A stretch of 62,610 nt of DNA, filler included, from Hausera hauseri (lineage: Eukaryota), in NCBI GenBank assembly GCA_046269625.1. It is 10 parts of 10 records of this genome, joined end to end, with 100 filler letters (N's around TTAATTAATTAA, not from the genome) between each part and the next. Parts side by side here need not be neighbours in the genome. Positions count along the whole stretch, not along the records: positions 21,442 to 31,166 come from JBJURY010301056.1; 9 more parts are not named here. One strand, given 5' to 3'. The position numbers and the translations under genes are program-made. The notes beneath the pieces were generated by a model that was given only the letters and a program-made list of their open reading frames with translations, had not been told where the DNA came from and did not search any database. This document shows, one piece after another, positions 1 to 51,592 of this stretch (the stretch's first letter is position 1; every line of letters starts with the position of its first letter).

Positions 1-1030
1 TTTAATGATTTACATTCGATTTGTTGCGTATCCTTCATAAGTGTTACTTTTTGTCTATTATGTAAGGATCGACAGTTATCTCTATATTGTAGTTTAATCT
101 GTCCTCGACAAAGAATGCTATCTTATCTCGCTGCAGTAAGTATTTGATAGAAATACTTTCCGGTTGCTTTCTGGGCCTTTTACTCGTGACGATTTTAGTA
201 GTCGTACTGGTCGTCGTCGTTGTTTTGACTGGAACTTCCCAGATCAGTCTCCGGATGGTATCCTCTTAGATAGACACTTGATTGGTTCGGTCTAGTTTTA
301 TACAGGTCAAACTGTATTTTGTATCTGTATCCCTGGGGAATTTTACAAAATGGGTTTGGGTTCCATCGATTAATGGCACAATATTCGTTGGTGGAGTTGA
401 TTTCTTCAGTGATATAAATCGAACCGAGATCTGGTAGGATTCTGTTAAACTTGTTCAAGTTTTAATCTGAATACAGGTATTTTCCAAATCCTTGGAGACT
501 TCATCTATATTTTCATCTAATAATCTAATTTGAGGGTCAGTACTTTGAATCACGTCGGATAATTTTATACTATCCTATAAGGCTTTCTATGGCATAGTTA
601 TTTCAATCAGTGGTCGTATGTCTGCTCGAATGACTTCATAGGGGTAATAATAGATAAGTATTGTATATCTGTATGTTCGTCCGAAATTTAGTTCGCAGCA
701 TTTTCTATAAATTCCATATCCAAACTCACAATCTTTTATCCTTTCACTATTTTGATCGGTAAACTTTATACGAAATTTCATATATTCTCTGGTAGCCTTG
801 TCGGTTTGGAACCAGATACAGAGCTTTTTCCAATCTGCGTCATATGCTTTCATTGTTTTTAGATTTTCCACGTCATTTTGTCCTTCCAGGCGTTGTTGTT
901 CCTCTTTGATTTTAGCTTCCCTTTCACTTTTGCTAATTCCATATACATCTGTTAAACTGGATTCGCTATTATCCCACCATTGCGCTTTAGTCTTGGGAAC
1001 ATAAGAGGAGATTAATGATAATGCCAAGAT
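1..1030 (-). pseudogene. Post-integrase surface-protein extension of copy A (signal-like segment, Cys-rich domains, start of the FN3-like domain), disrupted
   Basis: ILALSLISSYVPKTKAQWW follows IN in frame (ORF 587..2086). Then CIWF...DCEF.YG.YRKCC.L.FG.TY, and YCAI...CKIPQGYRYKIQFDLY...NQSSVYL (195..458). These align to the C-terminal extension of ORF 27283..31164. Confidence 0.85.
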
Positions 1031-2200
1031 TGTTTTCCTTTTTTCTTGATTGGAGTTAGATCGCAAATTGTAACGTTTTTCTGGTCTTATTTCTGTTTTA
1101 ATAACTCTCTGTATAGATACTACCTCTTCTTTTCCATTTTTGTTAATGTAAACAGTAGTTGGTGTGGTTCGAATAACTTCGTAAAGCCCTAGTCCAGTAC
1201 GAGTAAGTTTTAATGATGTACCTTTTGTCGCGACTGGATAGTGTACGTAAACCCAGTTCCCTTTTTCTAAATCGTGAAGTTTGGCCTTTTTATCATATTG
1301 CTTCTTAAACTGCTCTTGATACTCGAGAGTAAGCGTCTTAGCTATCTCCCAACACCTCTGTAGTCTCATTGATAAGACTTCCGCGAAGTTCGGCTCTAAA
1401 TCTTCTGGATTTGCGTGATACGGAGTCATTACTAAGTCCGTAGGTAATATTGTTTCGCATCCATACATCATAAAAAATGATGTAAATCCAGTGGCGGGAT
1501 GTATGGTAGTATTGATAGCAAATTGTGTTCCTTCCAAAAATTCATCCCAGTCCTTTTGATCCTTCGCTACTACAATTGGTAAGAACCGTAGAACTGTTGC
1601 ATTCATGAGTTCGACCATTCCGTTACACTGAGGGTGATATGCGGTAGTGGTCAACCGTTCGATCTCAAAGATCTTAGAAATTTTATCAAATAACTTACTT
1701 GTAAAATTTCTTCCTCTATCGGTTAATATTTGATCAGGGGGTCCGTATTTACAGATAACTTTTCTTACTACTGCATCTACTAGAGTTTCTGCCTTTTGGT
1801 CAATTAGTGCTATTAATTCAACGAAGTGTGTTAGTCGATCCACACATGTTAAAATATATTTGTTATTTTTGTGAGTCGTGGATAAGAGTCCTACTATATC
1901 CATAGACATAGCGTACATAGGTCTGTCTGGTACGTCGATCGGTTTCAATTCTGCTACATAGTTTTTTACTTTCTTCTGCTTCGTCGCACAGACTTCACAA
2001 GCGTCTACCCAGTTTTTCACGTCGATATAAACGCTTGGCCAGTAATACTTATTGAATATTCTTTCTAATGTTTTCTTCAATGACATGTCCAGCTAAATGT
2101 GAATCATGTTCATCCATTAATACTTCTGTTCGTAATTCTTTTGGAATGACTACCAGTTTCTGTCCTTTTAGTTCGTAATATAAAATATTGTCTTGATTCG
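1031..2200 (-). pseudogene. Integrase (HHCC zinc finger + DDE core) of copy A
   Basis: ORF 587..2086: YYWP...CEVC, MSMDIVG, ILTDRGRNF, TTAYHPQCNGMVE, ending RYNLRS. There is a frameshift near 2086. Confidence 0.92.
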
Positions 2201-2225
2201 ATGCAAAATATTTATGCCCGTGTCT

Positions 2226-5118: not shown

Positions 5119-6574
5119 TTATCGTTTATAATTATAGTAGCCGACATGGCGTTCAACGTCATTTTTCCATCGATTTTCTTCGTACGCTTTAAGCATTTTA
5201 CCGAACGGGGTGATAATTGAGGTTAAAATCTTACAGGAAAATCCTGTTTGCGTGAATATTTCGTACCCTTTTATAACTGCTTGGATTACCACTTTTACCA
5301 GTTGTACCAAGAAATAGATTGCTAAAAATCCAGATGCGGCTTGACCAAAAATCAAAAAATCTTCCCCATATTTTGTATAATATTTTTATGGTTACCCTTT
5401 GGTAATGGTTCGCACAAAGCAGGGATTTCCATTTAGCCTGGTAGCGGGTATCATTAACTACCGATGCTATAGCTCGGTTTAATTCGTGTGTTCGCTGTCG
5501 TGGAAAAGCAAGAAAGTGGCGAAAAGCTTCGATTTCTTTAGGCCTGTAAATACCTTTTTTAGATGTATTTTGAAACTTGTCATCAGTAATTCCTTTTTCT
5601 AAATTAGTTCCAGTTAATTTTTTAGGAATGATAGTGACACCTCCATTAAGTAAGCTAACTTAATCCGTTTCGCTACGTCTGAACATCGGTTCACCCAAAC
5701 TTGCCTTACAATCCTTTAGGATTGTTGGTTGCGTTGCGTTGTCTAGGGGCATGGCTAAGCGTGGAGTATTCTGGTAGATTACAGGTAGTTCTTGTATGCA
5801 TCGTTTCTCTTCGACATTGATTGGTACGTCTCTTTTCTCACATTCATATGTCAGTAGAACCTCGCCAGCAACTCGGCCAAAGATTCCTTCTCTAATGGGA
5901 ATAATAGGTGAGGCTTACTCAGGATTCGCATAAATAATGGATAATTTTGTCCTCATAATTTCCGTATCCAATTTGCAATCATTAATTATCATTTTATGGT
6001 ATAGCTCGGCTATCTCGACTTATCCTTTATAATAGAAATAATCGTCTCGGTTTTTCAGATAATCTTCGATTCTAATGTCTTGTGTTTCTAAGTTGTATGT
6101 TTTCGCGTTTGTCTCCGTTTCTGCGACGAAGAACGCTTCGTAGTTAGTGGTGAACATTACTACTTCGTAACGTGAAATCATTTCCTTTTTTATGAATTTC
6201 AAACCATGTTGATCGGAGATTAATATCGTAGTAGTGCTCTGATACGTTTTCACGTGCTCTTGAACTGATATAATATTTGTTTACGTACCTTTTCCCAGTA
6301 GTTTCATTAAATTTCAATTCCTTAATCTTAATAAAATTACAGCCTTTTTCAGCGGGCGGTTCCCATATGACGACCGAACTCCTGAAAGCACAGGTTCCGT
6401 CTTGTATATGACATTTTTGATTCTCGGTATAGAGCTTAGTGACGCTATGGAACATCACTTTCTGGACTCGCATTTCCGATTTGTAAAAATCTACTATTAC
6501 TACGTTTGCTTCTAATCCTTTTCCAGTGTCATATTCCGCTCCACTACAGTGCCCATTATGCATATCTAGCCTTC
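5119..6574 (-). pseudogene. Chuvirus/Jingchuvirales-like class III fusion glycoprotein (N-terminus cut off by the contig end)
   Basis: Manual translation across stops and frameshifts gives GHCSG, C...DGTC....VVIW, NDCKLD, GRVAGEVLLTYEC, RCIQELPV, GIYRPKEIEAFRHFLAFP, then the hydrophobic C-terminus FGQAASGFLAIYFLVQLVKVVIQAVIKGY...GFSCKILTS. This ordered motif series is characteristic of chuviral glycoproteins. Confidence 0.82.
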
Positions 6575-9470: not shown

Positions 9471-9472
9471 TC

Positions 9473-15139: not shown

Positions 15140-16175
15140 TTTCGACGGAAATAAAGAGTTAGAGGTGTTGTGGTACCCTATGGAAATTCAATAAAGTAAT
15201 CCGAATCACATATAATATTGACTTCAACATTGTTTATAGAAGTATATGCCACGGGTAGGTACCTTCGAATATCGAACTTGACAATGGCATTGTCACCAGC
15301 AGTATACTGGTTACTTTCCGGACAAATCGCACGCAGTAGTGGTACACGTACTCCACAGACAAAAATGGGTTCGCTGAGGTTCGTGTATATGTACATTTGA
15401 TGTAGTCCATTTTTCAGTTTTGGTTTAAATGTCGCAACATGTGTCTTCTCCGAAAAAAACCGCTGTTTTTCAAAACACATTACCATAGTCAAAGCCTTAT
15501 CCAACGAAATTTCGACTACATCTTTGCTTAGTTCAAATGTGAAGTACCCATTTGTATCTGATTTGAAATTTTTAATTAAATGTTTGTACCTTATAGCCGA
15601 AAAGTGTCGGCAGAGATCCACTACAGATTCACGAGAGACATTATCGCCAATTAGTATACCTGATTCAAACACCATTGATATATTTTGTCCATTGAAGACA
15701 ACGTTCACAGTTGTTTCAAGATTTGTATTTTGCTCATTAGCAAAAATACTTGCACCTTTGACTTTTGTATTTTTAAATCCGAATATTTTGGCCATTTCAA
15801 TGGATGCGAAGCGGATAGTAAATTCAATTTTATAATCAAACCGTGCTTTTCCATCTTTTAGGATAACACGGATTCTATCTTCTTTTATACCCTTACTCAA
15901 GTAGCTGTAAAAATGTAAAAGATTCCGGGCAACAGTTTATTATCTCCAATTTGTTGATTATATTATTCAGTTGCCATGACATGGTAAGTCGTGCAATAAG
16001 CTATTTTCGTAGTGCCTTTCAATATTACCGGTACACAGGGAAAGTTAAATTCTGCGAGAGCAACTGCAAATGTTTGTATAAATCCAATGGACTATCACAA
16101 TCTACAACGTATTGATTGGCCGAATTATTCGGACGAGTCTCAGGAAAAATGTTGCTAGGTAACACAATGTAAAGA
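15140..16175 (-). pseudogene. Polinton minor capsid protein (penton, single jelly-roll)
   Basis: N-terminal LYIVLPSNIFPETRPNNSANQY; C-terminal MYIYTNLSEPIFVCGVRVPLLRAI...YLPV...INNVEVNI...IEFP...LTLYFRR (ORF 15178..15900). Confidence 0.85.
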
Positions 16176-16285: not shown

Positions 16286-16385
16286 NNNNNNNNNNNNNNN
16301 NNNNNNNNNNNNNNNNNNNNNNNNNNNNNTTAATTAATTAANNNNNNNNNNNNNNNNNNNNNNNNNNNNNNNNNNNNNNNNNNNN

Positions 16386-18871: not shown

Positions 18872-19611
18872 GATTTATAAGTACAGGGTGGAATGCACTT
18901 TCGCGCCTTCTGTTTATACTTCTCGTGATACCAACAAAATTTCTTTTCGCGACGAACTGGACTCCTAGATCTATCAAAAGATTTCCTACGCGTACTGCGA
19001 TATCGCTCACGTGAACGCGCCTCAAGTTTAGCCAATCTGGCTGAAATGTCACTCAACGCACCCTGTATATCATCCTTTTGTGCTGTAACGGCCTGTATAC
19101 AATTTGTATCATTCGTGACGGCCATTATGCCATCAGCCATTTCGGCCAATTTTTCCAGATTATCGGAAGAAACCGCGAGAATCTGCTGAACTTGAGCCGG
19201 CAGTCTTTGAAGGAACAGAGATTTTAAAAGCTCTTCTGTAATCCTATTCCCTGCCTTTGACTTCATTTCCAGCAGTAATCGTGACGGCTTCCTATCACCT
19301 AATTGCATACCTGAAATTAAATCACGAAGTCTCTGTTGTTCGGTTACTGTAAATTGTGTACACAAACGTTTTTTTAATAAGGTATATGGTTTCTGCTTAT
19401 CTGGATTTAAAAGTATATCCTCCACTATTACCAACTCTTCCGGCTGCAAAGCCGCTACAGTGTGATAGTATTTAGTGGTTTCATCCGTGACTTTTGCCAG
19501 GTGGAACTGGCTATCCATCTGTGCAAACCATACCTCAGGGTTCGCTCGCCAAAAAGGCGGTGGCTTAACTGCCACATGATGTAAATTAACTTGATTCCCA
19601 ACTTCTGTCAT
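18841..19611 (-). CDS. gag: Gag with CHCC zinc motif (CsRn1 lineage)
   Basis: [46 protein letters not shown]...KCIPPC. Probable start is MTEVG. Confidence 0.93.
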
Positions 19612-19955
19612 TATAACACATATAATTTTCAAGGAAAAAAAAAAGTAACTCAACTTGTATTTAAAATAGTTTTTGCAACGTGGAACAACTCAAGACTTCA
19701 ATCGAATTGCTATTGAATAAGAAATATACTCACACATCCTTCTATTGTTTAACTTACTGCAGACGCATTATTCCTTTGCAAGCTTCAAGCATTTCCAACT
19801 GGAAAAATCAACTTAGAACTCTCAGTGTCATTTGCGGCAGCCTTCTTCATCAATTGGGAATTTACCTTTACAAGGCCTGGAAAATTCTGTATGAACATTT
19901 GGTGCAAAAAAAAAAATGTAAATTCTGTTAATGCAGCGGTCAGTTCATCAAGCTC

Positions 19956-19973
19956 AAACGTCCAAGATCACCA
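19956..19973 (-). promoter_or_regulatory. Putative primer-binding site (TGGTGATCTTGGACG...)
   Basis: TGGTGA begins 5 nt after the LTR-terminal CCTACA. It resembles, but does not exactly match, the tRNA-Trp-type PBS of CsRn1 elements. Confidence 0.55.
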
Positions 19974-19978
19974 GTTCA

Positions 19979-20583
19979 TGTAGGAACCCACTTGAATCCT
20001 CGGCTATTTAAGACAATAAAATTGTATTAAATGGTTAACGAAGCTAACAACCCGGATACTTATCCGTGAACTCCTACAGAATGATTCCCTGATTTGAAAA
20101 GGTCCGCTTCCATCTTGAAAGATTTCTTAAAGGAACTTCCAGTTGATTCATAAAGACATTACTACAAAGATAACTTTTAAATTAAACCATTTATTAACAC
20201 TGTTAATAGTCAAACAATAAAATAAAAACATAATTAAATAAATAAATAGGCAACTTAGCCTTTCAAACTAAAGAGTCATAATCCGCAACTAGTTGCTAGC
20301 CACCTCAGTAGCTAATGAAGCTGCTAACACATCCGTAGACTCTGTATTTATACTTCTTTCGGCAACAAATTAGCATAATCCAGCCTTTACGTTATTTCAG
20401 TAATTTCAAACTCGTAAAACAATCAGTCAGATATTCAAATCGCTTGCCTGCATCCAGGGCTACGCAACTCGCAAGTTCGAACAACGTCATTTGGAGAACC
20501 CTCGGATAATCCTCAGATAATTCATCCACGCATGACGTTAAAGAGAAACAAACATTTCTCTGGGGATAAACAAGATCCCTACA
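19979..20583 (-). repeat. Single LTR (~605 bp), TGTAGG...CCTACA
   Basis: Inverted termini TGTAGG/CCTACA, preceded by a polypurine tract and followed by a TGG PBS-like motif. Confidence 0.8.
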
Positions 20584-20600
20584 TAGCCCCCCCCTCAGTG
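20584..20600 (-). promoter_or_regulatory. Polypurine tract (GA + G-run + CTA) immediately 5' of the LTR
   Basis: It lies between the integrase stop (20601) and the LTR-initial TG. Confidence 0.85.
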
Positions 20601-21341
20601 TCAACGATACATCTCCTGGCACTGAGTACGGAAGCGTATGGTTCGTCCTGAACGTGTGCACATTTGTCCTTTTTGAGAATTATCTTTATCCGTCTGGACG
20701 CCAGGCTCAATAACTAAAGGTTGATGTGCAGGATTAGTTATTTCAAACGGTTTTTCATAAAATACAAAAGCTGGTTTAAGTCTATCAATACTTATAGAAA
20801 CTTCCTTATTCTTGATTAATACAATAAAAAATTTCTTATTTCTTTTAATGACTGTATAAGGTCCTTCATAAGGAGGTTGTAACCCCTTCTTCATGGCATC
20901 TATTCTTATAAAAACGTGTGTAGCTGTTAATAGATCCTTTGAAATAAAAATTCCACGCTGGGTCTGCTGTCTGTCCTTGGGAGGCATCATTTTCTGCATT
21001 ACCTCTCTTAATTGCCCCACGTAAGTCGCAGGATCTGGAGAAGAATTTACAGGACACACGATTTCACTCGGTAATCGTAGTGTCGTGCCATAGACCGCTT
21101 CAGCTGACGTAGCCTGCAGATCTTCACGCCACACTGAACGAAACCCCAGCAAAATAAATGGTATGCAAGCTGACCATTTGACATTAGCATAGGTCATAAT
21201 TGCCGCTTTTAATTGCCGATGGAGCCGTTCCACCTGACCGTTAGCCGCTGGATGGTAAGCTGTAGTTCGACATCTGTGTATACCGAATAAGGTATTTAAC
21301 TCTTTAAAAAGCGATGATTCGAACTGTGAACCCCTATCAGT
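20601..21341 (-). CDS. pol: Integrase C-terminal part with GPY/F motif (continuation of pol across the circular join)
   Basis: TTAYHPAANGQVERLHRQLK...LQPPYEGPY...SIDRLKPA...TRSGR. Confidence 0.93.
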   Translation of the reverse strand, partial: TDRGSQFESSLFKELNTLFGIHRCRTTAYHPAANGQVERLHRQLKAAIMTYANVKWSACIPFILLGFRSVWREDLQATSAEAVYGTTLRLPSEIVCPVNSSPDPATYVGQLREVMQKMMPPKDRQQTQRGIFISKDLLTATHVFIRIDAMKKGLQPPYEGPYTVIKRNKKFFIVLIKNKEVSISIDRLKPAFVFYEKPFEITNPAHQPLVIEPGVQTDKDNSQKGQMCTRSGRTIRFRTQCQEMYR

Positions 21342-21450
21342 NNNNNNNNNNNNNNNNNNNNNNNNNNNNNNNNNNNNNNNNNNNNTTAATTAATTAANNN
21401 NNNNNNNNNNNNNNNNNNNNNNNNNNNNNNNNNNNNNNNNNGAAAAGTTC

Positions 21451-22467
21451 TTATTGATTTTGCAAATGAAGGAAATTCAATCGGAATAAAGCGGATTCTG
21501 TTACAACAATTTCTTTTAAGACAACAAAAATAAATAAACACAAAAATAATGAGCTAGTTGAATTGGGTGGTAAAAACATCACATCAATAAATTTCAAGTC
21601 TACTTGTATTCTATGAGCTGTACAATTATCTATGACCAACAGAACCTTTTTTTGCAATTTAATCAGTTTTAAATCCCAATCCAATAACCATTTATTAAAA
21701 ATGTTATTGTTCATCCAAGCATTTGAAGAATTATAGTAGTCAACTAAAGAAGAATATGAGAAACCTTTGAAACACCTTGGTTTAGAAAATTTACCTATAA
21801 CAACGGGTTTTAATTTATGACTACCTGTCATATTTACGCAAAACAAGACAGAGATTCTATCTTTCAATATTTTATAACCATTCCTAACCTTTTTACATAC
21901 CGATTTAGACGGAATAATTTTGTAGAAGATGCCTGTTTCATCGGCATTATAAACATTTTCAGGACCATATTCTTCAATTTTGGATTTAAGTTCATTTAAA
22001 AAATCTTCAGGTTGCATGCTTGACATAGCATGTGATTCACCATGTAAATTTCTTAACTTCAACAAATTTCTTACCTTAAAACTTCTTAACCATCCATTTG
22101 AGGATTTAAAATCTTGTATGCCATTTGAATGGGCTATTTGAACAGCCTTTTCTTTTATTATATTATCCGTAATGATAGCACCTCTTTCTTCAAGTCTATC
22201 AATCCATGCGGACAATTCTTTGTCTAAAACATTAAACTTTAAAACTGGAATTCGCCAACCACTTTTGTGCACAAGATCAGCATTTTCAATCAAAAAATCC
22301 TTGTTTCTCCTGATATCATTAATAGTTCTTCTTGAAAGTTCTTTTTTAAACTTGCCTGAAAAAACCTCTGCCACTTTGTTGTCTGAATAAACAGGATAAG
22401 ATTCAATGTACTTCAAAATTTCAATTTTTTTAATAACAGTTAACTTTACACACTTTCGCTTTACCAT
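21451..22467 (-). mobile_element. pogo/Tigger (CENP-B-like HTH + DDE) transposase, C-terminally truncated
   Basis: FKSSNGWLRSFK, LHGES, YNADETG, KDRISVL, KPRCF, NAWM, LLVIDNCTAH, FLPPNSTS. Similarity stops before the expected QPxD motif. Confidence 0.9.
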
Positions 22468-22569
22468 AAATAAGCTGCAATTAAAAATTTAAAAAAGAAC
22501 AATTAAAACAACTTTATTATGTTAAAAATTAAAAAAATCATTAGAAATGTTTTTAAAAGATGTGGCGGT

Positions 22570-24070
22570 TAGGAGTATGCCTAATTCAGCTAGGTAAAGA
22601 CGTCGTCTGTGCGTTTTATTCTTGTTCCACTCTGGATAAACAATAGCGTGCAAAACATAGCCATTATACTGCGATAAATCCAACAAATTGACAAACACAA
22701 TGATATGCTACCTTCTGCTAACAAATTTTACCGAGTACGTCCTAACTCTTTCGTCCACAGCATCCACACCTCCTTTGGTAACATTGTAATAATTCACCAC
22801 CGCAGGCTTTTTCTTACACATGGCAATACAGAAACGTCGCCTTGTTGAACTGAACACAAGGACAACTATTGCCGGCTTCGCTTTATAGGACAGCAGTTTA
22901 AATTTGTCCCTCCGAGAAAATAAATGTTTGTCAAAAATGTCTTGCGGCCGTGGTATTGGATAAGCTCCTTAGGCACCTCCTTTCTGTTTCGCCTCATTGT
23001 ACCAACTAAAGCTAGAACAGAGCTCTAGCTAACGAAATACTGGTAAAAATTGTCACTCATTATGTTCCGACCTGTGACGTAAAGAAATTGAGTCCAATCC
23101 ATAACTACCCTTCCTCCTAAGTCTATTTCTGGTTCCAGGTCTTCTTTACCGCAGTACATTTGCAAATTTACGCAGTAATAGTTTGATGAGTCACAAAGCA
23201 GCCAGAACTTAAGGCCATATTTTGACGGTTTCCTTGGCATGTATTGCTTATATGGGCACCTACCTTTTATGGGTACATGTGTTCGTCTACCGTAAGACAT
23301 TCGTGTGGAATGAAATCACGCTGAGAATTAATCCGTCGATAAGCAAACGACAGACAGCTAATTTATCTCTAGTCAAACGAGCAGCCCTGGTTTCCGTATT
23401 ATCAAAACGCAAATGACCGTATAGTTTTGAACCTGGTTAGCGATATTGTTTTGGAAAATATTGACCGCCCTTTATCTTCTGACCAGAGTTCATCAACTAC
23501 CTCCCCAGTAGCCTTATACACACCGAGTAATATCAACAGTCCTAAGAATGCATCAAGTTCTGCATTATCCATATCTGTCCAAGCGTCTCCAGCAACACGT
23601 CTAATCTCTTAGTTTTCACCAGGATCGTGCACGTTATTTCATTGTCAAATATCACCCTAAATATGTCTAGTATTGGGTTACTCATAATTCTACTGGTGGC
23701 CCACGTGGTGATGCCAGGTCGTGTTGTTAAAATGTTTTTTGTCTGCCAGCCTACCTACAACTGTCGGCATAAGTGTGCTTCACATCTCACCACTACTAAT
23801 AATAAATGAACCTACCTCAATCGATCCCACGAGCATGACGCTTCTTCCAATATCTGCATCTTATTCGTCTGAGGTTTCACTTTCTTTTGTATCTTCCATC
23901 ATTCTTTCATCAACTTACATAAAGCATACCACATATCATTAAAACAAACCATATGATATATCGTCTATCAAAGTTTATGTTATGACTTACAGCATCAGTC
24001 GAACTTCCGTCGTCATCATTTTCATTATCACTTCTGTCCAACTGTGTCCAAGTAGTTCTCTCAAAGCCAT
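22570..24070 (-). pseudogene. piggyBac (PGBD4-like) transposase remnant
   Basis: WTDMDNAELDAFLGLLILLG, LRFDN, KGRCPYKQYMPRKPSKYGLKFWLLCDS, SDNFY, VGTMRRNR, YNVTKGGVDAVD across stops and frameshifts. Ends are approximate. Confidence 0.88.
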
Positions 24071-24837
24071 AGATTTAGATAATCTTGTCGGTCGTGATAT
24101 GACATCAAATGACAAATTCAGTTGTAATCTAAATACCCTGTATATAAAGTAAATACTCATGATAAGACGTAATCACTTCGTCAAGATAAAACAGTATTCA
24201 TATTTATATGCACAAGTTACAATGTAAAGTAGATGCATCAAACAGTACATAAAATATACATCAAATGAAAGTGTACCAAAAAGGACCCCCAAAATCTTTC
24301 TCATAACATGAATTTTTGTCCACCCCAAAAGTAGGAATCTAGTGGCCCTATAACAGTTTGTGTATACCGTAAAAATATTAAGTCACTAAAAGTCATTCAC
24401 GTAACATGTACGTTTACCAAATAATAAGTAATTACTTAAAAGGACCTCACAAAATGTTTGCGGTTTAAATAAATAATATTAGGCGGTTGTTTTTATTTTT
24501 TTTATTCAAAATTGATGTTTTTGATTATCATTGGTATTTATACCAAACCAGTCAAGATGATTGGTGCATTTTTCTGTGATGGAATAAGTTTTGCGCAGTT
24601 ATAATAAATTATAAATGCTGTGTAAATACAGTACGATCAAAAAATGTTATGCGGGTAATAATGACACATTATGACAGAGTTCGTGATGACGATAAATTCA
24701 TAATTCTGGGACAATAAGCTATAAATTTTCAGTCGTTCATTGAATTTTGAGGGGTGTTGGCTGTGAAATTTTGTTGAAAATACTGGAAACATTTCTTTGG
24801 ATACCGAAATAATCAAAACTATTGTTTAGTAAGAAAA

Positions 24838-27180
24838 CTAAACATAGCCAGTTATTCTCTCGTCTAAATCGGAAATGGATTCGTGGCGTTCTCGAACTGT
24901 TACGGAATTTGTTTCCAAACTATAACTGTAGTGGGGTTTTATTCTAACGACTCGCGTATAGCTTCCGTTCGAGTAATACTTAAGCTCTGTAGCTTCAGCC
25001 CGACATACTGGACACGTGGTCTTCCCATTGTCGAGGGTCCATTTTTCGAGGCAGTCTCTGCAATATTTATGTCGGCAATTTTTGTTATCGAGGATTACAT
25101 AACCTTGTTGTAAGTTAGCTTCGCAGACGGGACATTCGTTTTCTTCCTTGCCCCAATCGTCCCGATCCAAGTCTACTTGGATGGTTAGCTCAATCGGCTC
25201 AAATACAAGGCCGTCTTTATCTTGATATAGATACCCATGGATTATCTTTTGTTTCGGGTTAACGGAGCTTTTTCTGGGATCACAATCAACTTGTATTAAT
25301 GTCCAGTCGGCCATGAGGTCCTTATCTAAGTCGGGAATGATTCCTTCCATTCTATATTTCTTGTATTGTTTCTTCAGTAGAACTCGAATTTGTCTATCTA
25401 CTGGCACTATTATCTTTCCTGTCCTTTTTGAGCGAAAAATTGAGGTTAGGTAGGTTCCGAGTTTGCTGTTTTCCCATACATAAGTATTTTCAAATACTTC
25501 TCGGTTTGGTGCGATTTTGATGAAAAACATGGCCTCCTTTATTATCTTTTTACTGTAGTACTCTGTGGTGATTAGCATCTTTGGAAATTCCTTTGTAGTT
25601 CTATAGTGTGCGTCCTCTTTATTTCTTTTCGATATCAAGGTATTGATCTCAGTTATTAGGGGACTCCTAATTCCCCTTTTCAATGGCTGTATATCTTGGG
25701 AAGTGCCTGATTGATTTTTCTGAATCTCCGTTCCTAATTCTCCGTCTATTTTCCGTCTTTTAAACAAGTAATTGTATATCGATAGGGTTTTCCTGCTTTT
25801 AGGTTTTTCTTCGACTTTCGTACCTTCGGTCGAGGTTCCGGGCCTCATTGCTTCCATGTCCTCCCTGGTTTTTATCACATCTCCTTTTGGTATTTTCTCT
25901 TTTCGAGCGTTCCGCGTTTTTGTATTCTCTTTGATGGTCCGTTCTGGTACTGTGATGTGGAGACTATGTTGGTCCGTTAACTGGACAGATCGAATTGGGG
26001 AATAAAGCTTTATGCCCTTTCTATGTTTTCCGTCTATTCGCTCTGGAACTATCGAGTTGCGTAAGTTTTCTATGGGATTCTTTGGGGTCCACTCGTGTTC
26101 CCACTTTAATTTGACATATATCTCCCGCAAGTGTTTGGACCGTTGGCTGGCCGTCATAAGTCTGGGTATCTTGCTTTGATCATCACTCATGGCCTCAATA
26201 GCTAATTTGAGAATTGCTTCTGGTGCTGTAGGTGGATTTCTCCCTTGTATTGTTTTTTTCATCCGTTCTTGAACTATTGGGTGATGGGCTATTTCCCTAA
26301 ATCCGGCAATATTTGCATCGGATATTTCTAATAGCTCCATGTTGTACTGTGCGTAATATCCAGTTACCATACATCCGTATAGGCAATGTTCTAATTCTGA
26401 TCGTACCTGATAGCTGTCTTTCCCATTTATTAATTGGTCTTTCCTTAAACCTGTTACTTCTGCATATGTTTCTTGAACATGCTTCCGGGGGTTTATAATA
26501 GTTGAATATATTTCTTCTCCATTTCTCTCTCTGACTGATACATCTATAGGAATTCCGTATCCATCGTCTCCTCTACCGCAATTTATCGCTATGATTCTTA
26601 TATTCCGTCCATCTTGGACTAATCTGTATGCTTGTCGGTGTCTATCCTTTTCTTCCTCGGTTGGTGTCTGTATGAACTGTAACGCTGGCAAACCTAAGTT
26701 GCAGCTTTCTTTACTAGTTACTTCGAACATCAACTTGACGGGTAGTACCGCTACTCGAAATTCTATCTCATACTTAACGGATTCTAAACCTTGTCCGCTG
26801 ATCTTAAACGTGCTGAACCGATACTGGCGCCCTTCATCGTTATTCCATGGCTGGTTCTTTATTCTATAATAAATCTCTCCATCCGCGAGGTGTATAAAGA
26901 GATTCTCCACTCGGTTTACTTTATTATGAATTAACTCCTTCAGATCGTACGATTTGGCTTGATGGTTGTCTCTCATAGCATATAACAGGACGGTACGGTT
27001 GTCCTCTGTAGTGCCTTTTAAATCGTTGGGTATTTCAGTCACTTTTTGATATCCCAGGTATGCTTTTGTCTGCATTGCGTCGTTGATTCTTCTGTATAAT
27101 CCTTTGGATTTCGGAATGAGGACTGTTCCGTATTCTTGTAGAAAGGCGTCGATCCTAGGTCGGCTGTTCGTACTTACCAT
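24838..27180 (-). CDS. 780-aa accessory protein: unknown N-terminal domain, inactive REX4/ISG20-like DEDDh exonuclease fold (~26110-26605), basic linker, C3HC4 RING finger (~25000-25134)
   Basis: IIAINCG..IDVSVR..NGEEIYSTIINP...VTGLRKDQL..GKDSYQVRSELEHCLYGCMVTGY..YNMELL..LKLAIEAM..KIPRLMTASQRSKHLREIY follows REX4-like spacing but lacks the acidic/His catalytic residues. The RING is CPVC-x15-CRHKYCRDC-x12-CPVC. Confidence 0.85.
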   Translation of the reverse strand: MVSTNSRPRIDAFLQEYGTVLIPKSKGLYRRINDAMQTKAYLGYQKVTEIPNDLKGTTEDNRTVLLYAMRDNHQAKSYDLKELIHNKVNRVENLFIHLADGEIYYRIKNQPWNNDEGRQYRFSTFKISGQGLESVKYEIEFRVAVLPVKLMFEVTSKESCNLGLPALQFIQTPTEEEKDRHRQAYRLVQDGRNIRIIAINCGRGDDGYGIPIDVSVRERNGEEIYSTIINPRKHVQETYAEVTGLRKDQLINGKDSYQVRSELEHCLYGCMVTGYYAQYNMELLEISDANIAGFREIAHHPIVQERMKKTIQGRNPPTAPEAILKLAIEAMSDDQSKIPRLMTASQRSKHLREIYVKLKWEHEWTPKNPIENLRNSIVPERIDGKHRKGIKLYSPIRSVQLTDQHSLHITVPERTIKENTKTRNARKEKIPKGDVIKTREDMEAMRPGTSTEGTKVEEKPKSRKTLSIYNYLFKRRKIDGELGTEIQKNQSGTSQDIQPLKRGIRSPLITEINTLISKRNKEDAHYRTTKEFPKMLITTEYYSKKIIKEAMFFIKIAPNREVFENTYVWENSKLGTYLTSIFRSKRTGKIIVPVDRQIRVLLKKQYKKYRMEGIIPDLDKDLMADWTLIQVDCDPRKSSVNPKQKIIHGYLYQDKDGLVFEPIELTIQVDLDRDDWGKEENECPVCEANLQQGYVILDNKNCRHKYCRDCLEKWTLDNGKTTCPVCRAEATELKYYSNGSYTRVVRIKPHYSYSLETNSVTVRERHESISDLDERITGYV

Positions 27181-27181
27181 T

Positions 27182-27210
27182 CTAAAAACAAATACAAAAT
27201 AAGGGTCAAT
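27182..27210 (-). promoter_or_regulatory. Putative splice acceptor for the accessory ORF
   Basis: TTGAC-CCTTATTTTGTATTTGTTTTTAG|A ATG GTA AGT. The homologous site in copy C is ATTAAC-CT(n)ATTTTAG|C AGA GTA AGT ATG (49161-49195), in the same phase. Confidence 0.7.
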
Positions 27211-27282
27211 CCTGAAACAAAGTATTGTTCTAAATTTGAACCAATTCTTTGTTTGATGGTGGAATAACCCAATCTGTAGTTG

Positions 27283-30200
27283 TCAGGTTATTCCATCATT
27301 GATTTCATCCTGTGGTACCATCACCCTTAATTCCCTTTCATTAATTTTATGACGCTTAATACAACAATTTTTGGCAATTAATCGAAAAATCGCAATGATC
27401 ATTACGAGAGCGAACACTGATATACCAATAAGCGATATTAGTGACATCGTTGTCCATTTATTTGAATTCTCTATTTTGACGGTAGTTATAATTTTGTCAT
27501 TTGCTTTGTCCTCATTTGATAGTTGCTTCATAGAAATTTCGTTTAAAGTTCGTGCTGTAAATACTACACTTTGTTTACTTTCTGCTTTCATTTGTATTAT
27601 ATAATTTGTCCTAGGTTTTAATCCGATACATTTAATTTGACGACTGCCACTTGGCAGTATGACTTTCTGGTCATTATACAATGTTCGACAGCTTATTCTT
27701 ACTTCGTATTTAAGTTTTTCTTCCGCAACGAATGTTATCTCGTTTTGTTGTGCCAGATATTTTACCGGGATCGTTTCTAATTTTTCTGATGGTGATCCGG
27801 TTGTTCGGTAGAGTCTAATAGGAACTGGGGTAATTTTATTCCTTTTTATAATCGTAGTTTTGTTCATATTTGGTTTCGGCATAATCCCTTTGAATAAATA
27901 ATTCAATAGGTAGCTTCCTAAGAAAATACTTGACTGATTGATTCTTACTTCATACAAGTCTAGTCGAATTTTATATCCATGTGCTTGAGGCGTTTTGCAG
28001 CATCTGTCGGGCCTTTCTGAGTCAATCTGACAATATTGTTGATGTAAAATCGGTTTGTCTTCCTTGAAAAAGTTAACTGTGATTACTCGTCCTTTAACCA
28101 GCCGTCTTTTAGTGTTGATTTGAACACATCGATCTTTTTGGTTTTCTTCTACGTTTTCTATATTTTCCTCTAACATTCGTTTGAGTGGGTCCATAGACTG
28201 GAGTAAGTCCTCCGAATCGGTACTTCGGTAATCTTCATAGTTTTGAGGTAGCACTAAATATGAATTCAAGATTATTTCCGCTTTTACTTTATCACAGTTT
28301 GGTGGATATAATTGGTATCGCACAGTATAAGAATGTCCATATTTCACGTTACAACAAGTCGTATCATCTTCTGACTCGAATCTACATTCGCTTTCTTCAT
28401 GGTTCGATATATCACGGAACAGTATCCGAGTTTGTCCTTCACGTAAATCTGGTAATCTGAATCCGACACATGGGGTTTCTGGTGAAAAGTAATCAATTGT
28501 TATAGCTCGTAAGAATTTTTCATCTCTTGGTTCTATTTTATTTTCGGGCAATTTTTCTGGAGGTTTTAACTCATTTAACCCAATTTTTCTAATCCCATAT
28601 ACATCACTTAATGAACTTTCATCGATCCACCATTGTGCTTGAGTCTTGGGCGTTAATGCAGCAATTAATGATAAGGCTACTATGATTTGAGCATACGATA
28701 CTGGTCTGGTGATAATTGATGAGGTCTTATTTTCACGTGGTCTCAGATTGTACTGTTTGATCGGTTTTATGTCTGTTTTAACTACTCTTTGCACTGATAC
28801 AACTTCTTCCTTTCCATTTTTATTAACATATACTGTGGTCGGCGTTGTTCGGACTACTTCGTATGGTCCTCTTCCGGTACGTGTTAATTTCAAGGATGTA
28901 CCTTTTTTGGCTACCGGATAATGTATGTAAACCCAATTTCCTTTCTCCAGATCGTGAGGCTTGATTTTTTTATCATATTGTTTCTTAAATTGTTCTTGAT
29001 ATTCGAGTGATAGTGTTTTCGCGACTTCCCAACATTTCTGCAATCTTGTTTGTAGAACTTCTGCAAAGTTTTGTTCTAAATCCTCTAAGTTCTTTTCATA
29101 TGGCGTCATGCCTAGGTCTGTGGGTAAGATTGCTTCTCGTCCGTACATCATGAAAAATGGTGTAAATCCTGTTGCTGGATGTGGGGTAGTGTTAATTGCG
29201 AACTGAGTTCCTTCTAGGAATTCATCCCAATCCTTTTGGTCCTTTGCCACTACCGTTGATAATATTCGAATAACTGTTGCATTCATTCGCTCTACCATTC
29301 CGTTGCATTGAGGGTGATATGCAGTTGTCGTTAAACGTTCGATTTCAAATATTTTAGTGATCTTCTCAAATAATTCACTTGTAAAGTTTCTTCCTCTGTC
29401 TGTTAGTATCTGTTCTGGTGGTCCATATCTGCAAATAATTTTCCTTACTACTGCATCGGCTAAGGTTTCTGCTTTCTGATCTATCAGCGCTACTAGTTCA
29501 ACGAAATGCGTTAATCGGTCTACGCATGTTAGGATATATCTGTTATTTCTGTGTGTTTTAGGCAAGGGTCCCACTATGTCCATTGACATAGCTTGCATTG
29601 GCCTATCTGGCACGTTTATGGGTTTTAATTCCGCTACATAGCCCTTTGATTTCTTTTGTTTAGTAGCACAAACTTCGCAGGCTCCTACCCAATTCTTCAC
29701 ATCGATATAGATGCTTGGCCAATAATATTTATTCAGTATCCTTTCTAACGTCTTTTTCCAGGACATATGTCCGGCTAAATATGAATCGTGTTCCGCCATA
29801 AGCACTTCAGGTCGTAATTCCTTGGGAATAACTATCAATCTCCGTCCTTTTCGTTCGTAGTATAAGACGTTATCTTGATTTGACACATGATATTTATGTC
29901 CGTGTTTTTGTAGGTGCTTTTTCAATTGTCGTCCTTTCGGTAGCTTATTGTCTTGTACGAACTCAATAATTTGTTGAATGACCGTATCCTTAGTTTGTTC
30001 GGCTGTGATTCTAACTGTTTTGTCTAATATTAGAGTCTTCTGTCGTTCAATCAGTTGCTCGAGTTGTGGTTTCTTAAATACTGTAATCGCACTGGTTTTT
30101 GTTTTAAGCCTTGACAGTGCATCGGCATCAACGTGTTTGCTACCAGGTTTATACTGAAATTCGATATTATATCTCGAGATTTCTTCAATCCATCGATTTA

Positions 30201-31166
30201 ATCTACACGTTGGATTATTAGCTCGTCCCTTTATCGTCGTAACTGCTTTATGATCCGTTACTATGATTATTTTTTGTCCATAAACGTAGACATTAAAATG
30301 TCGTAGTGCTTCTTTCACAGCTAATGTTTCTAATTCGGTGACCGAATAGTTCTTTTCTGCTTTCTTTAGTGAACGTCCTCCGTATGCTATTGGATGTTCT
30401 AATTCCTCGTCTTCACGTTTCTGAGCCAGTTCATATCCTATGCCTTCCTTACTTGCGTCCGTTTTGATGATAAATGGTAGATTGAAATCTGGATATCTTA
30501 GGACTGGTTCACTAGTTAAAATCTTTTTCATTTCGTCGAATGCCTTTTGTTCTACTTCTGTCCATTTCCACTTAATTCCTTTCTTGAGTAATCGGTACAG
30601 CGGAGCATTAATTTTTGAGTTGTCCGGCACGTAAGTGGCGTAATAACCGCATAGACCTAACCAATGTCTCAACTCTTTCTGATTTTGCGGTTCCATACAG
30701 TCCGATATTTTATTTAGCAATGATTTATCAGGTTTCGATCCTCCTTCTCCAACTATGTGTCCAAGATACGATACGGCATTTTGTGCCCATTTACATTTCT
30801 TTGGATTTAATTTTAGTCCGGCTTGTTCTAGTCGCATAAGTGTATCTTCGACATCCTTTAAATGTTCTTCTTCTGTTTTTGATGCTACCATCACGTCATC
30901 TAAGTATGCGAATGCATGGTCAAGTCCCATGAGCATCTTATTCATCATTCTGGTAAAAATAGCTGGTCCTGTGGTGATACCAAAAGGCATAACATTAAAT
31001 TCATATACACCATCGTGTGTTTTAAACGCCGTTTTATATCGATCTTCTTCTTCGATTTCCACTTGCCAATATCCCGATTGTAAGTCGAGAGTGGTAAACC
31101 ATTTTGCTCCTGATAATCTGTCGAGGGCTTCCTTTACTGATGGTAAAGGGAACGAGTCCTTCATCA
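27283..31166 (-). CDS. pol: Pol polyprotein (RT, RNase H, IN) with an in-frame ~470-aa type I membrane protein extension (27283-28695); 5' truncated
   Basis: YLDD, TDAS/ELE/TDHK, H..GH..CEVC, DDE, GPY, YNLRP. Then signal-like YAQIIVALSLIAALTPKTQA, two C..C-x8-9-CC..Y repeats, FN3-like GLKPRTNYIIQMKA, TM WTTMSLISLIGISVFALVMIIAIF and tail KNCC. Confidence 0.95.
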
Positions 31167-31266
31167 NNNNNNNNNNNNNNNNNNNNNNNNNNNNNNNNNN
31201 NNNNNNNNNNTTAATTAATTAANNNNNNNNNNNNNNNNNNNNNNNNNNNNNNNNNNNNNNNNNNNN

Positions 31267-42800: not shown

Positions 42801-42819
42801 GTAAATAAGGAACGTAAAC

Positions 42820-47200: not shown

Positions 47201-47750
47201 TGAATGCAACCGTTATACGAATCTTATCGATTGTAGTCGCAAAGGACCCGAAGGACAGGGATGAGTTCTTAGAAGGTATACAGTTTGCCATTAATACTAG
47301 TCCACATTCTGCGACAGTATTCACTGCATTTTTTATGATGTATGGAAGAGAATCGGTGCTTTCTACAGGTTTAGAACGGATCCCATACACAACAAGAACA
47401 GAAGATTTGAAACAAAATTTTGTCGAGGTATTGCAACTGCGATTACACAAGTGTTGGGAAATAGCCAAAGAATTATCTAAAGAATACCGGGAACAATTCA
47501 AGAAGCAGTATGATAAGAAGACTAAACCACACGATCTAGAACCCGGAAATTGGATTTATGTCCACTATTCAGTAGCAAAGAAAGGCACGTCTCTTAAGCT
47601 TACCAGGACAGGCAGAGGACCGTATGAAGTTATTAAAGCTACGTCGACCACAGTCTATATGAATAAAAAAGGCAAGGAAGAGGTCATATCAATTCAGCTA
47701 GTAGTTAAAACGGAAATAAGGCCAAACAAACACTACAATTTGCGTTCGAC
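44231..47750 (+). pseudogene. pol: Pol (PR, spacer, RT, RNase H, IN) of copy C
   Basis: EDWEVYALIYAG (dead PR site), GYWQV..MPFG..YLND, VTDH, MDIVGP/TDRG, GPY, HYNLRS. Confidence 0.93.
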
Positions 47751-47789
47751 CAAAACAAATAAAGGGACAAAAACGTCATCAATAGTAAC

Positions 47790-49088
47790 TAGACCAATGT
47801 ATAATGTACAAATAGTCCTGGCCATATCGTTAATCTCTTCGTATATACCCACAGTAAAATCGATCGCTCAAACCGAAAAACAAAAGGATATCCGAAACTT
47901 ACAGTCACTTAGAGTATGCGATATGGATTGGAGAAAACCATGTCATGGTTTGAAGCAAGCGAGCCTATTCGGAGTCGCGTGAAATTTCAATTAATATTTG
48001 TAACCAGGGACATGATGAAAACGTGCGATTTTCCGTACGGAGTTCATAGGAAATGTTGCAGTTTGGATTTTGGACAAACCTACAAATACGGATTTCAAAT
48101 GTTTTATTCTTATCAGTTTGGGGCTCGAGCCTACATAAGTAGGGAACTGTCAATAAGAATGCCCCAACAATAGGACGCAAATCAAGCTAAGACAGACAAA
48201 ATAAATCGAAGCACAGATCCAGTTAATAGGCTCTTAGATTACAACATTATTGGGATTCACAAGGACTTGAAGAACCAGTGTATTCGAATTGAGACCAAAA
48301 TCTGACTGCCAGGAGACAAAGAAATTTCTGTCCAGTTTACACCGCTGAACACTTCTATTCCTAAACCAGAGTATTGTTCATTGGCCAAACGACGTCATAC
48401 TGTGTGCTGTGTACTGATAATAGGACAAGAGTATCGGTTGCAATTCGATTTGTACGATACATATCCAGGAGAACCAAGTATCTATTTAAGAGGATACCGT
48501 CCAAAGGTCGAAATATGGAGGCTTCCATTCCCGACCACTACGAGAAAACCGTCTACTGCTCCGAGTACAACTCGCATTACCATAATCGTCACTTTGGTCA
48601 AAATGCCGGGAAACATACCGGTTAAAATTTTATCAAAAAGTGATAAAATTCTATTTTTCGCTAAAGAGATGTCGAATCAAGATGTCAAAATTAAATGTCA
48701 TACCCTGCACACTAACCAAGTTGTGATCCTGAGAAAGAATAGCCAGGAAACTGAATGCAGGTCATTACGGCTGCAACATGACTATATAATTAGAATTACT
48801 GCAAAGGGTAAGAACCCTAAAACTTTTACAGTACGAAATCTTGGCAATAAATTTGAAGTAATGCCGTATAAAGATATCAGTACTGAAAATGTGTTTACCA
48901 CGGAAAGTTTTATCGAGCCGAATAATTTACCGATAATAGCTATATTTAGTTTGTCAATTTTAGTTCTTATCATATTAACAGCGATGAATTTTCTAGTTTT
49001 CAAAAATTGTAATAAGCGCTGTAGAAATCGGAAGTGAGGTAAATGGATAAAAGGGCACCAAGACAGACTTTATGATAGCATAAACTAA
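47790..49088 (+). pseudogene. Surface-protein extension of copy C
   Basis: IVLAISLISSYIP, TCDFPYGVHRKCCSLDFGQTY, VCCVL..GQEYRLQFDLY, T/P-rich stalk, CRSLRLQHDYIIRITA, TM IIAIFSLSILVLIILTAMNFLVF. Confidence 0.85.
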
Positions 49089-49182
49089 CAACTACAGATC
49101 GGGTTATCCTATCGTCGGACAGAGAAAGATGTTTGTTTCCAAACGGTGATTTGTCTTAGGATTAACCTTTTTTTTATTTTAG

Positions 49183-51592
49183 CAGAGTAAGTATGGCCGA
49201 GAAGGCGAAGAATACAGCAGTCAGTTCCAATTTCGATATCGATGATTTCTTCCAGCAACACGTCACTGTTCTGAAACCACTGTCCAAAAGTTTATACCGA
49301 CAAATTGGAGAAAACCTAAAAATCCAGAACTATCTAGAGTTCAACCAAGAGAGTAAAATACCAAGCGGACTAAAATGGGGCTTAGAGGAGAATCGACTGG
49401 TCCGATTATATACCATGAGAAATCCCAAGGATGCACGGACATGCCTTTTAAGAAATCTAATTCCATATGAGCCGACACATCAGCAATTGTACGTACATGT
49501 CACTCATGGAGAAATTCAATACAGGATCGTAGAACAATCCTGAAGTACGCAAAAAGGGCAGCAGTGGAAGTTTAGTACTTATGAGCTATGTTGCTATAGC
49601 CTCATGAATTATGCTTTGTAATTTAGGATCGCGGACCTTCCGACCAAAATCATGATCGAGATGAAGTGTCGAACAGACATAATGAAGCCGCTACCACCGT
49701 TATTATATGTACAGAAACTATTGGAAGACGAGATAGATTAGAATGGAGAATCCTACAGATTAGTTTCAGACGGTAGAAACATCAGAATATTGACCGTGAA
49801 CTATGGAAAAAAAGATAAAAGATGGAATGCTCCAATTGAGGTCTCTATCAGAAATATTAATGGAGAAGAGATCCTAAATAAAATAATAGCGCCTGAAGTT
49901 AGAATAAAGAACAGTTTTCCCCATGTCACACGAATTACGAAAGTTCAGCTTGAAAAAGGAAAGGATTTTTTGGAGCTCCAAAAAGTTATAAGCCATTGCT
50001 TATATGGTTACGTTGTTACCGGATTCCGAATGCACGAAGCGCTGGAGTGACTAGGAATTAGGCAAGAATACATAGCCGGAATTCGAGAAGTGAGCCGGAA
50101 CCCAGCCGTTGTGAGCCAAGTAGAAAATACTTTGATGCGGAAAAGATGTTGTCTGCTTCCCTCCTCAGCATCCAGCGAATCGCAATTTAAAATGATGCTA
50201 GAAGCCATGAATGGCGAACGATTCAAATTCCCTAAGCTGATGACAGCAAGTCAACGGACCAAATTTATAAAGGACATCTATGATAATTTACGGTGGAATC
50301 ACGAATGGAAACCCAAAAATCCCATACAGAATGCGATATCTGACAACATCCCCAAGGCACTGATACAAAAATTTCGAAAAGGGTTTAGTGAATACCCGGG
50401 GTATAGACAGATCGAACCCTAAGGATACAATCGACTTCTAGTAACAATCCATAACAATCCAATGGAAGCCCAAAACAACCGACAGAAACAATCAACCAGT
50501 AAGGCCCAAGAAGAAAAGGCAGTAAAATCCGATAATTTAGAAAACCCGAGAAGACAAAAGACGAAAACTTCCTTCCTAGAATACATTAGTAAAAAAAAAG
50601 CAAGACCAGTAAAAGACCAATAGACGAAAATAAGGTAGCGACAGATAGCAAAATCCCGGAAGAACCCACAAATGATACAAAGGAAATATCGAACAAACGC
50701 GAAACAAAAGAAAATAACAAAAATCAATTATGAATTACCAAAACCGGATCCATTAAGACGGAAGTTAATGTTCTTCGGAAAAACGGGGAAGAAGACACCC
50801 CAATTATCGTTACAGAATTTGGTCAAGTGAAAGAATATAAAAGAATTCTGGTCATGGTCAAGTATTATAGCAAAGGGAAAATTAAAGAGGCTATATTTTA
50901 CGTGTCTACTGTCCCTATAAGGATAATCAGTGGAAATGGATATGCCAGAGAAGATCGCACTATCGGCAGATACCTAGCCCCTGTATTCTAATCAAAGAGT
51001 GGCACCAACAGACTAACGATTCCTGTGGATACCCAAGTTAGAATTTAATTAAAAAGACAATACAAGAAGACTGGAATACCCGATCTGGATCAACAAGAAA
51101 TAGTCGAATGGACCTTAGTCGCGGTATCCGACGATCCGAGAAAAAGCTCGATAGACCCCAATCAAAAGAGATTGTACGGATACTTGTATCAAGACAAAAA
51201 GGACTGGCATTTGAAAGAATAGAAGTGGACGAAAACCTTGTGGACATTGATGCAGCTGAAAAAGCAGAGTGTTCCCATGTGACGCAGATCTTTATCAAGG
51301 ATTTGTGGTGCTAGACAACAAAGACTGCAGTCACAAATATTTTGCCGCTACTCTTTGGAAACGTGGACCCTGAAAAATGGGAAAATGACCTGCCCAGTAT
51401 GCAGAGCTGAAGCTACCAGGCTCAAATACTACTCAAATGGAGAAAATAAGAAGATAGTAGAGATACTACCCGAACAGGCCACTACATCCTATCATATTGA
51501 CTTGCAATCACAGTCGAATGAATCGGATTCGGAAGCGTACTTACGCGGACGAATGGACCAATTACGCCGATTTCCCGGCATCTCTACTGACG
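49183..51592 (+). pseudogene. Pseudo-exonuclease/RING accessory ORF of copy C
   Basis: IDDFFQQH..L.P.SK.LYR.I, LTVNYG..PIEVSIR..NGEEI, HCLYG, KLMTASQR, WNHEWKPKNPI, LDNKDCSHKY..WTLKNGKMTCPVCRAEA all match ORF 24838..27180. Confidence 0.9.

Follow-up and report, generated by a model that had tools for sequence, protein, structure and literature searches.

The pol frame of a Ty3/gypsy element in the genome of Hausera hauseri runs past the integrase into what appears to be a second, non-fusogenic surface protein with FN3-like units, which would be cut off by signal peptidase and would bind a molecule on the host surface; on balance, we favour this account as a whole. The extension of the integrase is a real, selected feature, and the layout of the element belongs to the GAG-ENV-POL-type gypsy elements. 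We found no earlier description of a signal-FN3-transmembrane unit, with a RING protein possibly added by readthrough, after a gypsy integrase.

The window, which is the whole stretch of DNA that was analysed (62,610 nucleotides, filler included), consists of contigs joined end to end by N44-TTAATTAATTAA-N44 linkers. Related Ty3/gypsy elements lie on three separate contigs: copy A (1-6574, minus strand), copy B (within 21442-31166, minus strand) and copy C (44231-51592, plus strand). The contigs end within the element, with B starting inside pol and C starting inside or at pol. The pol part of copy B (28753..31218, minus strand) comprises a reverse transcriptase (RT), inside which the contig begins, RNase H (RH) and integrase (IN), with Pfam matches to RVT_1, RT_RNaseH_2, Integrase_H2C2 and rve (E 7e-34 to 2e-14). 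The protease motif was found in copies A and C. The PR-RT-RH-IN order, the gypsy-type RNase H and the H2C2 integrase, as identified with Pfam, place the elements in Ty3/gypsy.

Several other features were observed in the window. A domain between protease and RT (3850-4137, minus strand; 44715-45221, plus strand) resembles the dUTPase-like insert of Burro and has no Pfam match. A broken gag with a CCHC knuckle, followed by ~2.5 kb of coiled-coil-like ORF remnants, lies at 6675-10933 (minus strand) and may represent the 5' portion of a large element. The end of a Cys-rich transmembrane protein without a Pfam match is found at 11455-12030 (minus strand), and the ORF at 15178-15936 (minus strand) is one that we take, by eye, to recall a Polinton minor capsid protein. 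Broken ORFs at 42800-44130 (plus strand) look by eye like a Polinton-type DNA polymerase region, again with no Pfam match. The flank of copy B (21451-23700, minus strand) holds a Tc5/pogo transposase and, by eye, also a decayed piggyBac-like transposase. Two further gypsy elements with a short gag (16334-21389 and 51693-56100, both minus strand) show no extension after the integrase, and a class II aldolase/adducin-like gene lies in two pieces at 57620-58996 (plus strand).

A single frame of copy B (31218..27283, minus strand) encodes RT, RNase H and integrase and then continues for 489 codons from YNLRP (28752) without a stop. The stops expected in this extension had a mean of 36.5 and a minimum of 19 in 2000 shuffles of the same bases, vs 0 observed. 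The initial annotation had claimed that no stop follows YNLRP, and for copy B this holds, with 489 open codons against at least 19 stops in each of the 2000 shuffles. The hydrophobic segment, the TQA|QWW junction, LKPRTNYIIQMKA (27621), the transmembrane segment and the CC tail of copy B all lie where it had placed them. Its statement that the in-frame fusion to the integrase is retained in all three copies is correct from the integrase to the signal and fails beyond it. Copy C departs from the frame directly after the signal, and copy A has a stop after domain 1 (587-589) with continuation in other frames, so that only B is open throughout. The extension of copy A (1..1070, minus strand) thus retains the signal and unit 1 in frame with the integrase, with units 2 and 3 in broken pieces. 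Copy C (47740..51592, plus strand) retains the signal, a broken three-unit ectodomain, the transmembrane segment, a stop with CAACTA at 49086 and a broken ORF2. One contig from run X1, which may be the source sample, spans 27367-28887 and crosses the integrase junction with 0 differences. Its depth is 135.6 vs 6.4 for the flank contig, although contig depth does not equal copy number; this depth suggests that the extension of B belongs to a young group of near-identical copies.

The integrase C-terminal YNLRP, a basic linker and a signal-peptide-like segment ending T-Q-A occupy 28636..28752 (minus strand), as judged by hydropathy and inspection, and a possible cut in copy B lies at TQA|QWW (28636/28635). 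The segment is also in frame with the integrase in A, where it ends T-K-A, and in C, where it ends V-K-S. Cleavable signal peptides have a basic n-region, a short h-region and small residues at -3 and -1. The residues at -3 and -1 are small in the signals of all three copies, and inspection and hydropathy found the whole pattern in each of them. The transmembrane anchor (27376..27456, minus strand; hydropathy 2.94 in B and 2.77 in C) is followed by a short basic tail with Cys-Cys (27286..27375, minus strand), at the place of which copy C has KNC. The 19-residue hydropathy peak of the signal-like segment in copy B is 1.62 vs 2.94 for the transmembrane anchor. Along the element, peaks occur at the env transmembrane segment (2.26, in A), the signal (1.62) and the anchor (2.94), with none in RT-RH-IN (no peak of 1.5 or more at 28753..31218 of B) and none in ORF2. 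This alternation of hydrophobic segments in A and B fits a membrane-threaded polyprotein. That the FN3 unit has its own start or is reached by splicing was considered and rejected for B and A, because there is no Met (none after aa 704 ahead of the signal in B and none in the linker of copy A) and no splice-acceptor-like site near the signal in copy B.

In the topology that we propose, Env would lie in the lumen and be held by its transmembrane segment, PR-RT-RH-IN would lie in the cytosol, and an internal signal would return the chain to the lumen for the FN3 units, followed by the anchor and a cytosolic tail. Host signal peptidase would likely cut the type I FN3 protein off this membrane-threaded polyprotein, as the signal pattern suggests, and the integrase would then be freed from the signal stub by the protease of the element or by an intramembrane protease. 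That a surface protein is made from the polyprotein is, in our judgement, highly probable.

The ectodomain of copy B contains a four-Cys unit 1 (28243..28521, minus strand), predicted to be an FN3-like beta-sandwich by AlphaFold2 (AF2), Foldseek and VIA, a homologous unit 2 (27874..28143, minus strand; leave-one-out 39.5 bits vs ≤8.5 for shuffles) and a weakly FN3-like unit 3 (27535..27786, minus strand; Pfam fn3 E 0.026). Each of the six Cys-domain instances in the window scored 36-40 bits when compared with a profile built from the remaining five, and 500 shuffles reached at most 9.8. The two Cys repeats described earlier are therefore true repeats, with four Cys in each domain of copy B, and the pattern given for them is loose in places: domain 2 of B has A for G/H and domain 2 of A has FC for CC. 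The AlphaFold2 model of unit 1, built from a six-row alignment, has seven strands (pLDDT 73.8, pTM 0.63) in the 3+4 sandwich of an FN3 domain. By title, 43 of the 46 PDB rows listed by Foldseek for unit 1 are FN3 domains, monobodies or cytokine receptors; among the matches listed, the TM-score reached 0.63 and the best E was 0.024, with none <0.001. VIA aligned the whole domain at Z 8.0 (rmsd 3.0 over 90 residues) to 7.0, with cytokine receptors and fibronectin first; bacterial Ig-like domains tied with these, and a Z of 7-8 may mean merely a common arrangement. Against a viral structure library, phage tail FN3-like proteins came first and the bunyavirus Gn rows were weak (TM-score about 0.4).

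The curated Pfam fn3 cut-off was not reached, units 1 and 2 having no match and unit 3 scoring 15.2 bits against a cut-off of 25, and profile comparison found no similarity between units 1-2 and unit 3 (probability 0.5%). In Atlas, the whole extension adjoins arthropod and chordate FN3-transmembrane clusters at 0.87-0.91 with low recognition, and no match above 0.81 came up when units 1-2 were searched by themselves. Modelled from a single sequence, the whole ectodomain gave a structure of poor quality (pLDDT 37), the VIA search with this model reached Z 6.7 without a clear family, and unit 3 was not modelled with confidence. A search of the PDB by sequence found nothing significant for the extension. 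From the model, units 1 and 2 are likely FN3-like sandwiches, and we are confident that the extension has an FN3-type fold. The earlier division into Cys repeats plus one FN3-like domain has to be revised: the Cys-repeat domains are themselves predicted to be FN3-like, so the ectodomain would consist of three FN3-like units. The layout of a type I membrane protein with FN3-like, beta-sandwich domains is supported by the fold prediction and the structural matches. Structure prediction and Foldseek, proposed as a check for FN3 or cytokine-receptor folds, returned an FN3-like beta-sandwich for unit 1. In keeping with the impression that the region does not resemble an F-type, phlebovirus or gB-type env, no Pfam family came under E 0.01 and the fold lists are of FN3 type, absence from a list not being exclusion. 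Neither outcome that the initial annotation had set against its own reading was seen: a signal and a beta-sandwich are predicted, and no known env family was matched.

Before the protease, copy A carries a gene for a fusion glycoprotein of chuvirus/gB type, which is broken and encodes one transmembrane segment (5272..6574, minus strand). With X at its stops, the translation of 5402-6280 matched PF24664 (Monjiviricetes fusion glycoprotein) at E 3.5e-19. The gene has 4 stops in 334 codons, and its transmembrane segment (hydropathy 2.26) and the protease motif share one frame. An env of this type before pol was found in copy A only, and its linkage to the extension on one contig is shown for the broken A alone because B and C do not reach the env region. 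The summed X1 depth of env (3e3-1.4e4) is of the same order as that of the integrase (1.1e4-1.8e4), so env looks family-wide. Given this gB-type fusion gene, the extension is likely a second, non-fusogenic surface protein, and no fusogen was prominent in any fold list for the ectodomain.

Downstream of the tail and in the same frame as pol lies ORF2 (24838..27282, minus strand), which encodes a DEDDh-exonuclease-like domain and a C3HC4 RING and lacks a transmembrane segment (hydropathy ≤1.27). The RING (about 25000-25134, minus strand) has the C3HC4 ligand pattern and scores above the Pfam cut-off (E 1e-8). The exonuclease-like domain (about 26320-26600, minus strand) matched ISG20L2 at E 0.014 as a single sequence and at 0.0011 with a two-copy profile. 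The ISG20L2 DxE aligns to NCG in B and NYG in C, which is not the pattern of an active DEDDh exonuclease, and the domain seems inactive by this alignment. About 300 nt after ORF2, at 24500-24545 (minus strand), TATA-like and AATAAA motifs lie ~45 nt apart at single-copy-level depth; no LTR was identified.

The terminal stop is followed by CAACUA and a 3' stem-loop (27190..27285, minus strand), which is likely a readthrough signal, judging from the rarity of CARYYA and the fold z-score. CAACTA stands directly 3' of the stop in both B and C, whereas CARYYA follows 16 of the 6167 stop triplets in the window (0.26%). The 22-nt stop motif has 2 occurrences in the window vs 0 in 100 shuffles, the pattern having been drawn from these two sites. 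The stem begins 12 nt 3' of the stop (z -3.9 in B and -2.1 in C), and none of its 19 predicted pairs is broken and 2 are changed on both sides, in a comparison of two sequences only. Among X1 contigs, summed depth in the 3' half peaks in the bin containing the stop (28203, with neighbours at 1342 and 1841), and 0 of the 12 listed indels fall between the stop and the ATG. In B, the stop is in frame with ORF2, with 34 open in-frame codons; a similar peptide is found in C. The TMV-type arrangement of an in-frame stop with CARYYA is thus present in B and C, with the downstream ORF in frame in B and not in the decayed C. In copy C, an extra stop lies 17 codons ahead of the CAACTA stop, ORF2 is out of frame with the latter (101 nt from stop to GTAAGT vs 108 in B), and six other frame changes occur in ~6.2 kb. 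A second hairpin with the stop in its loop is possible in B (27268-27297, minus strand) and competes with the 3' stem; it is absent from the best fold of C.

CAR-YYA is a known TMV-type readthrough context, and SIRE1 has an in-frame stop between pol and env (PMC2194720); 3' stems are known readthrough signals in benyviruses and alphaviruses (PMC3159437). The in-frame stop after pol, the CARYYA and the 3' stem are shared with the present element (PMC2194720, PMC3159437). Unlike in SIRE1, the stop here follows the tail of a transmembrane protein, and what readthrough would append is a cytosolic RING ORF instead of an env. We propose that most ribosomes would stop after the short tail and a few percent would read through UGA-CAACUA, adding the pseudo-exonuclease-RING ORF to it, which the motifs around the stop make rather probable.

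The same segment contains features of a splice acceptor. A branch-point-like motif, a U-rich tract and an AG just before the first ORF2 ATG, then GTAAGT, lie at 27172..27210 (minus strand). Of the 204 YAG in 6.3 kb of B, no other is an acceptor-like site with a branch motif, and the site is also present in C in the same codon phase. GTAAGT, a perfect donor, is seen four bases after the acceptor-like AG (27172-27182, minus strand; 49182-49192, plus strand). Because both copies have these elements shortly before an ATG, a spliced RNA for ORF2 is likely too, and such an RNA may make ORF2 on its own. The branch-point-like motif lies within the 3' arm of the stem, and the stem may therefore regulate splicing instead. 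It is accordingly possible, though rather unlikely, that the surface protein is the same and that no readthrough takes place, with soluble ORF2 made only from spliced RNA and the kept RNA segment controlling splicing. The uniqueness and conserved phase of the acceptor-like site, its overlap with the stem and the loss of frame between stop and ORF2 in copy C all fit this explanation, but it leaves unexplained why so rare a context as CAACTA follows the stop in both copies, and why 34 in-frame codons are open in B with a similar peptide in C. Readthrough and splicing can coexist as routes to ORF2, and we retain readthrough as the favoured one.

The ectodomain varies far more than the integrase. 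Amino acid identity between copies is 25-49% in the ectodomain domains vs 76-84% in the integrase. For copy B, the summed depth of X1 contigs is 144-173 in the ectodomain vs >1e4 in the integrase (85% likeness), and for copy A the ectodomain has 350-800 (80% likeness); no other coding part is shared as little among X1 contigs. We read this low sharing as fast change of an exposed domain, with loss in many relatives as the alternative. A binder of a host surface molecule fits best, because the protein is of type I, would be made in equal numbers with a gB-type fusogen and has a fast-changing, receptor-like ectodomain, and we lean towards host-surface binding as its role. The short form would then assist the gB-type fusogen by attachment or receptor binding, and whatever the ectodomain binds would be ubiquitinated and removed by the long form, leading to superinfection exclusion or immune evasion. 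The complete scheme, in which one threaded polyprotein provides a two-glycoprotein entry system (gB-type fusogen and FN3 receptor binder) and a readthrough receptor-type ubiquitin ligase that clears the host target, is a tentative one and unlikely to be right in every part.

Distinctly unlikely is a decoy or blocker of host immune or cytokine-type signalling on the expressing cell, with no part in particle entry. Cytokine receptors are among the top fold matches, and fast change among relatives is also what a decoy might show, but a shared fold shows no function, and the ectodomain has no sequence match to any receptor. The mark of class I cytokine receptors is the WSXWS motif, and this motif is absent from the translation of the extension. 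Protein searches found no host-gene donor of the ectodomain, and descent from a named host receptor is unsupported.

It appears improbable that the signal-like segment stays uncleaved as a membrane tether for Pol or integrase, with a mainly structural ectodomain. The integrase is directly followed by this hydrophobic segment in each of the three copies, and conservation of the segment (45-70% identity between copies) exceeds that of the domains. Yet the segment is short and weak for a transmembrane segment (1.62), its end has a conserved Pro and small residues at -3 and -1, and the retention of three domains would call for a further explanation. That the extension is neutral captured DNA or an artefact of assembly is very improbable and largely refuted: two of the three copies are broken, the contigs are short, and B is possibly a collapsed repeat, but the same layout recurs in three long-diverged copies with pN < pS, and one X1 contig spans the junction without differences at a depth far above that of the flank. 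In the extension, pN (0.23-0.52) was below pS (0.55-0.80) in 11/11 comparisons among the three copies, with a protein-guided alignment that lowers pN. Values of pS in the integrase among the copies are 0.74-0.81, and no dN/dS estimate is given because synonymous sites are near saturation.

We compared this arrangement, a signal-peptidase-released FN3 surface protein after the integrase, with known systems. GAG-ENV-POL Ty3/gypsy errantiviruses with an HSV/gB-type env have been described in Nematoda, Bryozoa and Platyhelminthes (Chary and Hayashi, PMC13524379) and, like copy A, carry a chuvirus/gB-type env before the protease. According to the main text of that survey, the chromodomain is the only named domain C-terminal to the integrase. 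The main text of PMC13524379 makes no mention of fibronectin, fused, RING, readthrough or accessory; its figures and sequence files may hold such elements unremarked. Burro/GYPSM1, a giant gypsy of planarians, encodes a single large polyprotein in which env sits between gag and pol without a change of frame (PMC6431247). Its accessory ubiquitin-related domains include a RING, as in ORF2 here; its env is reported to be gypsy-Env/mononegavirus-like, and no signal-FN3-transmembrane unit after the integrase is described for it (PMC6431247, section 7). The abstract and section 3.2 of PMC5408684 name no such ORF, and the literature, mostly at the level of titles and the starts of abstracts, yielded no description of an FN3 unit after integrase.

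Searches for relatives gave few leads. No relative of the extension was found among 4392 candidates from proteins of 710-2261 aa or 4781 candidates from proteins of 260-828 aa, nor any relative by domain profile among 6437 candidates from proteins of 164-2000 aa; these negatives are weak evidence of absence because the searches need shared words. Among viral contigs, nothing related to the extension, the integrase or the stop motif turned up. A metagenome scan found five loci at 32-35% integrase identity, none with the four-Cys domain. One unrelated metagenome gypsy element (L003:3-6161, plus strand; integrase 33% identical) encodes integrase, chromodomain, a signal-like segment, an F-type-looking env and a transmembrane segment in one ORF. 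As in copy B, its integrase frame continues via a signal-like segment to an ectodomain with a transmembrane segment; the ectodomain looks F-type by eye and does not match the four-Cys domain. The receptor-type RING ligases RNF43/ZNRF3 and the viral MARCH ligases K3/K5 join an ectodomain or transmembrane segment to a cytosolic RING. The readthrough form would share the transmembrane segment and the cytosolic RING with them and differ in its ectodomain. Unlike in these ligases, the RING here would lie ~780 residues from the transmembrane segment, behind a nuclease-like domain, and only after recoding.

Searches limited to gag, pol and env would miss a unit of this kind. For the gB-carrying errantiviruses, the entry route is described as unknown, since herpes gB needs partner glycoproteins (PMC13524379, an eLife survey, main text). 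For the gB-type fusogen, the predicted second surface protein encoded further along the same polyprotein is an immediate candidate for such a partner. The element would also be a retroelement that carries a receptor-like fold and possibly, by recoding, a membrane-anchored ubiquitin ligase, a means of host manipulation that is otherwise known from large DNA viruses.
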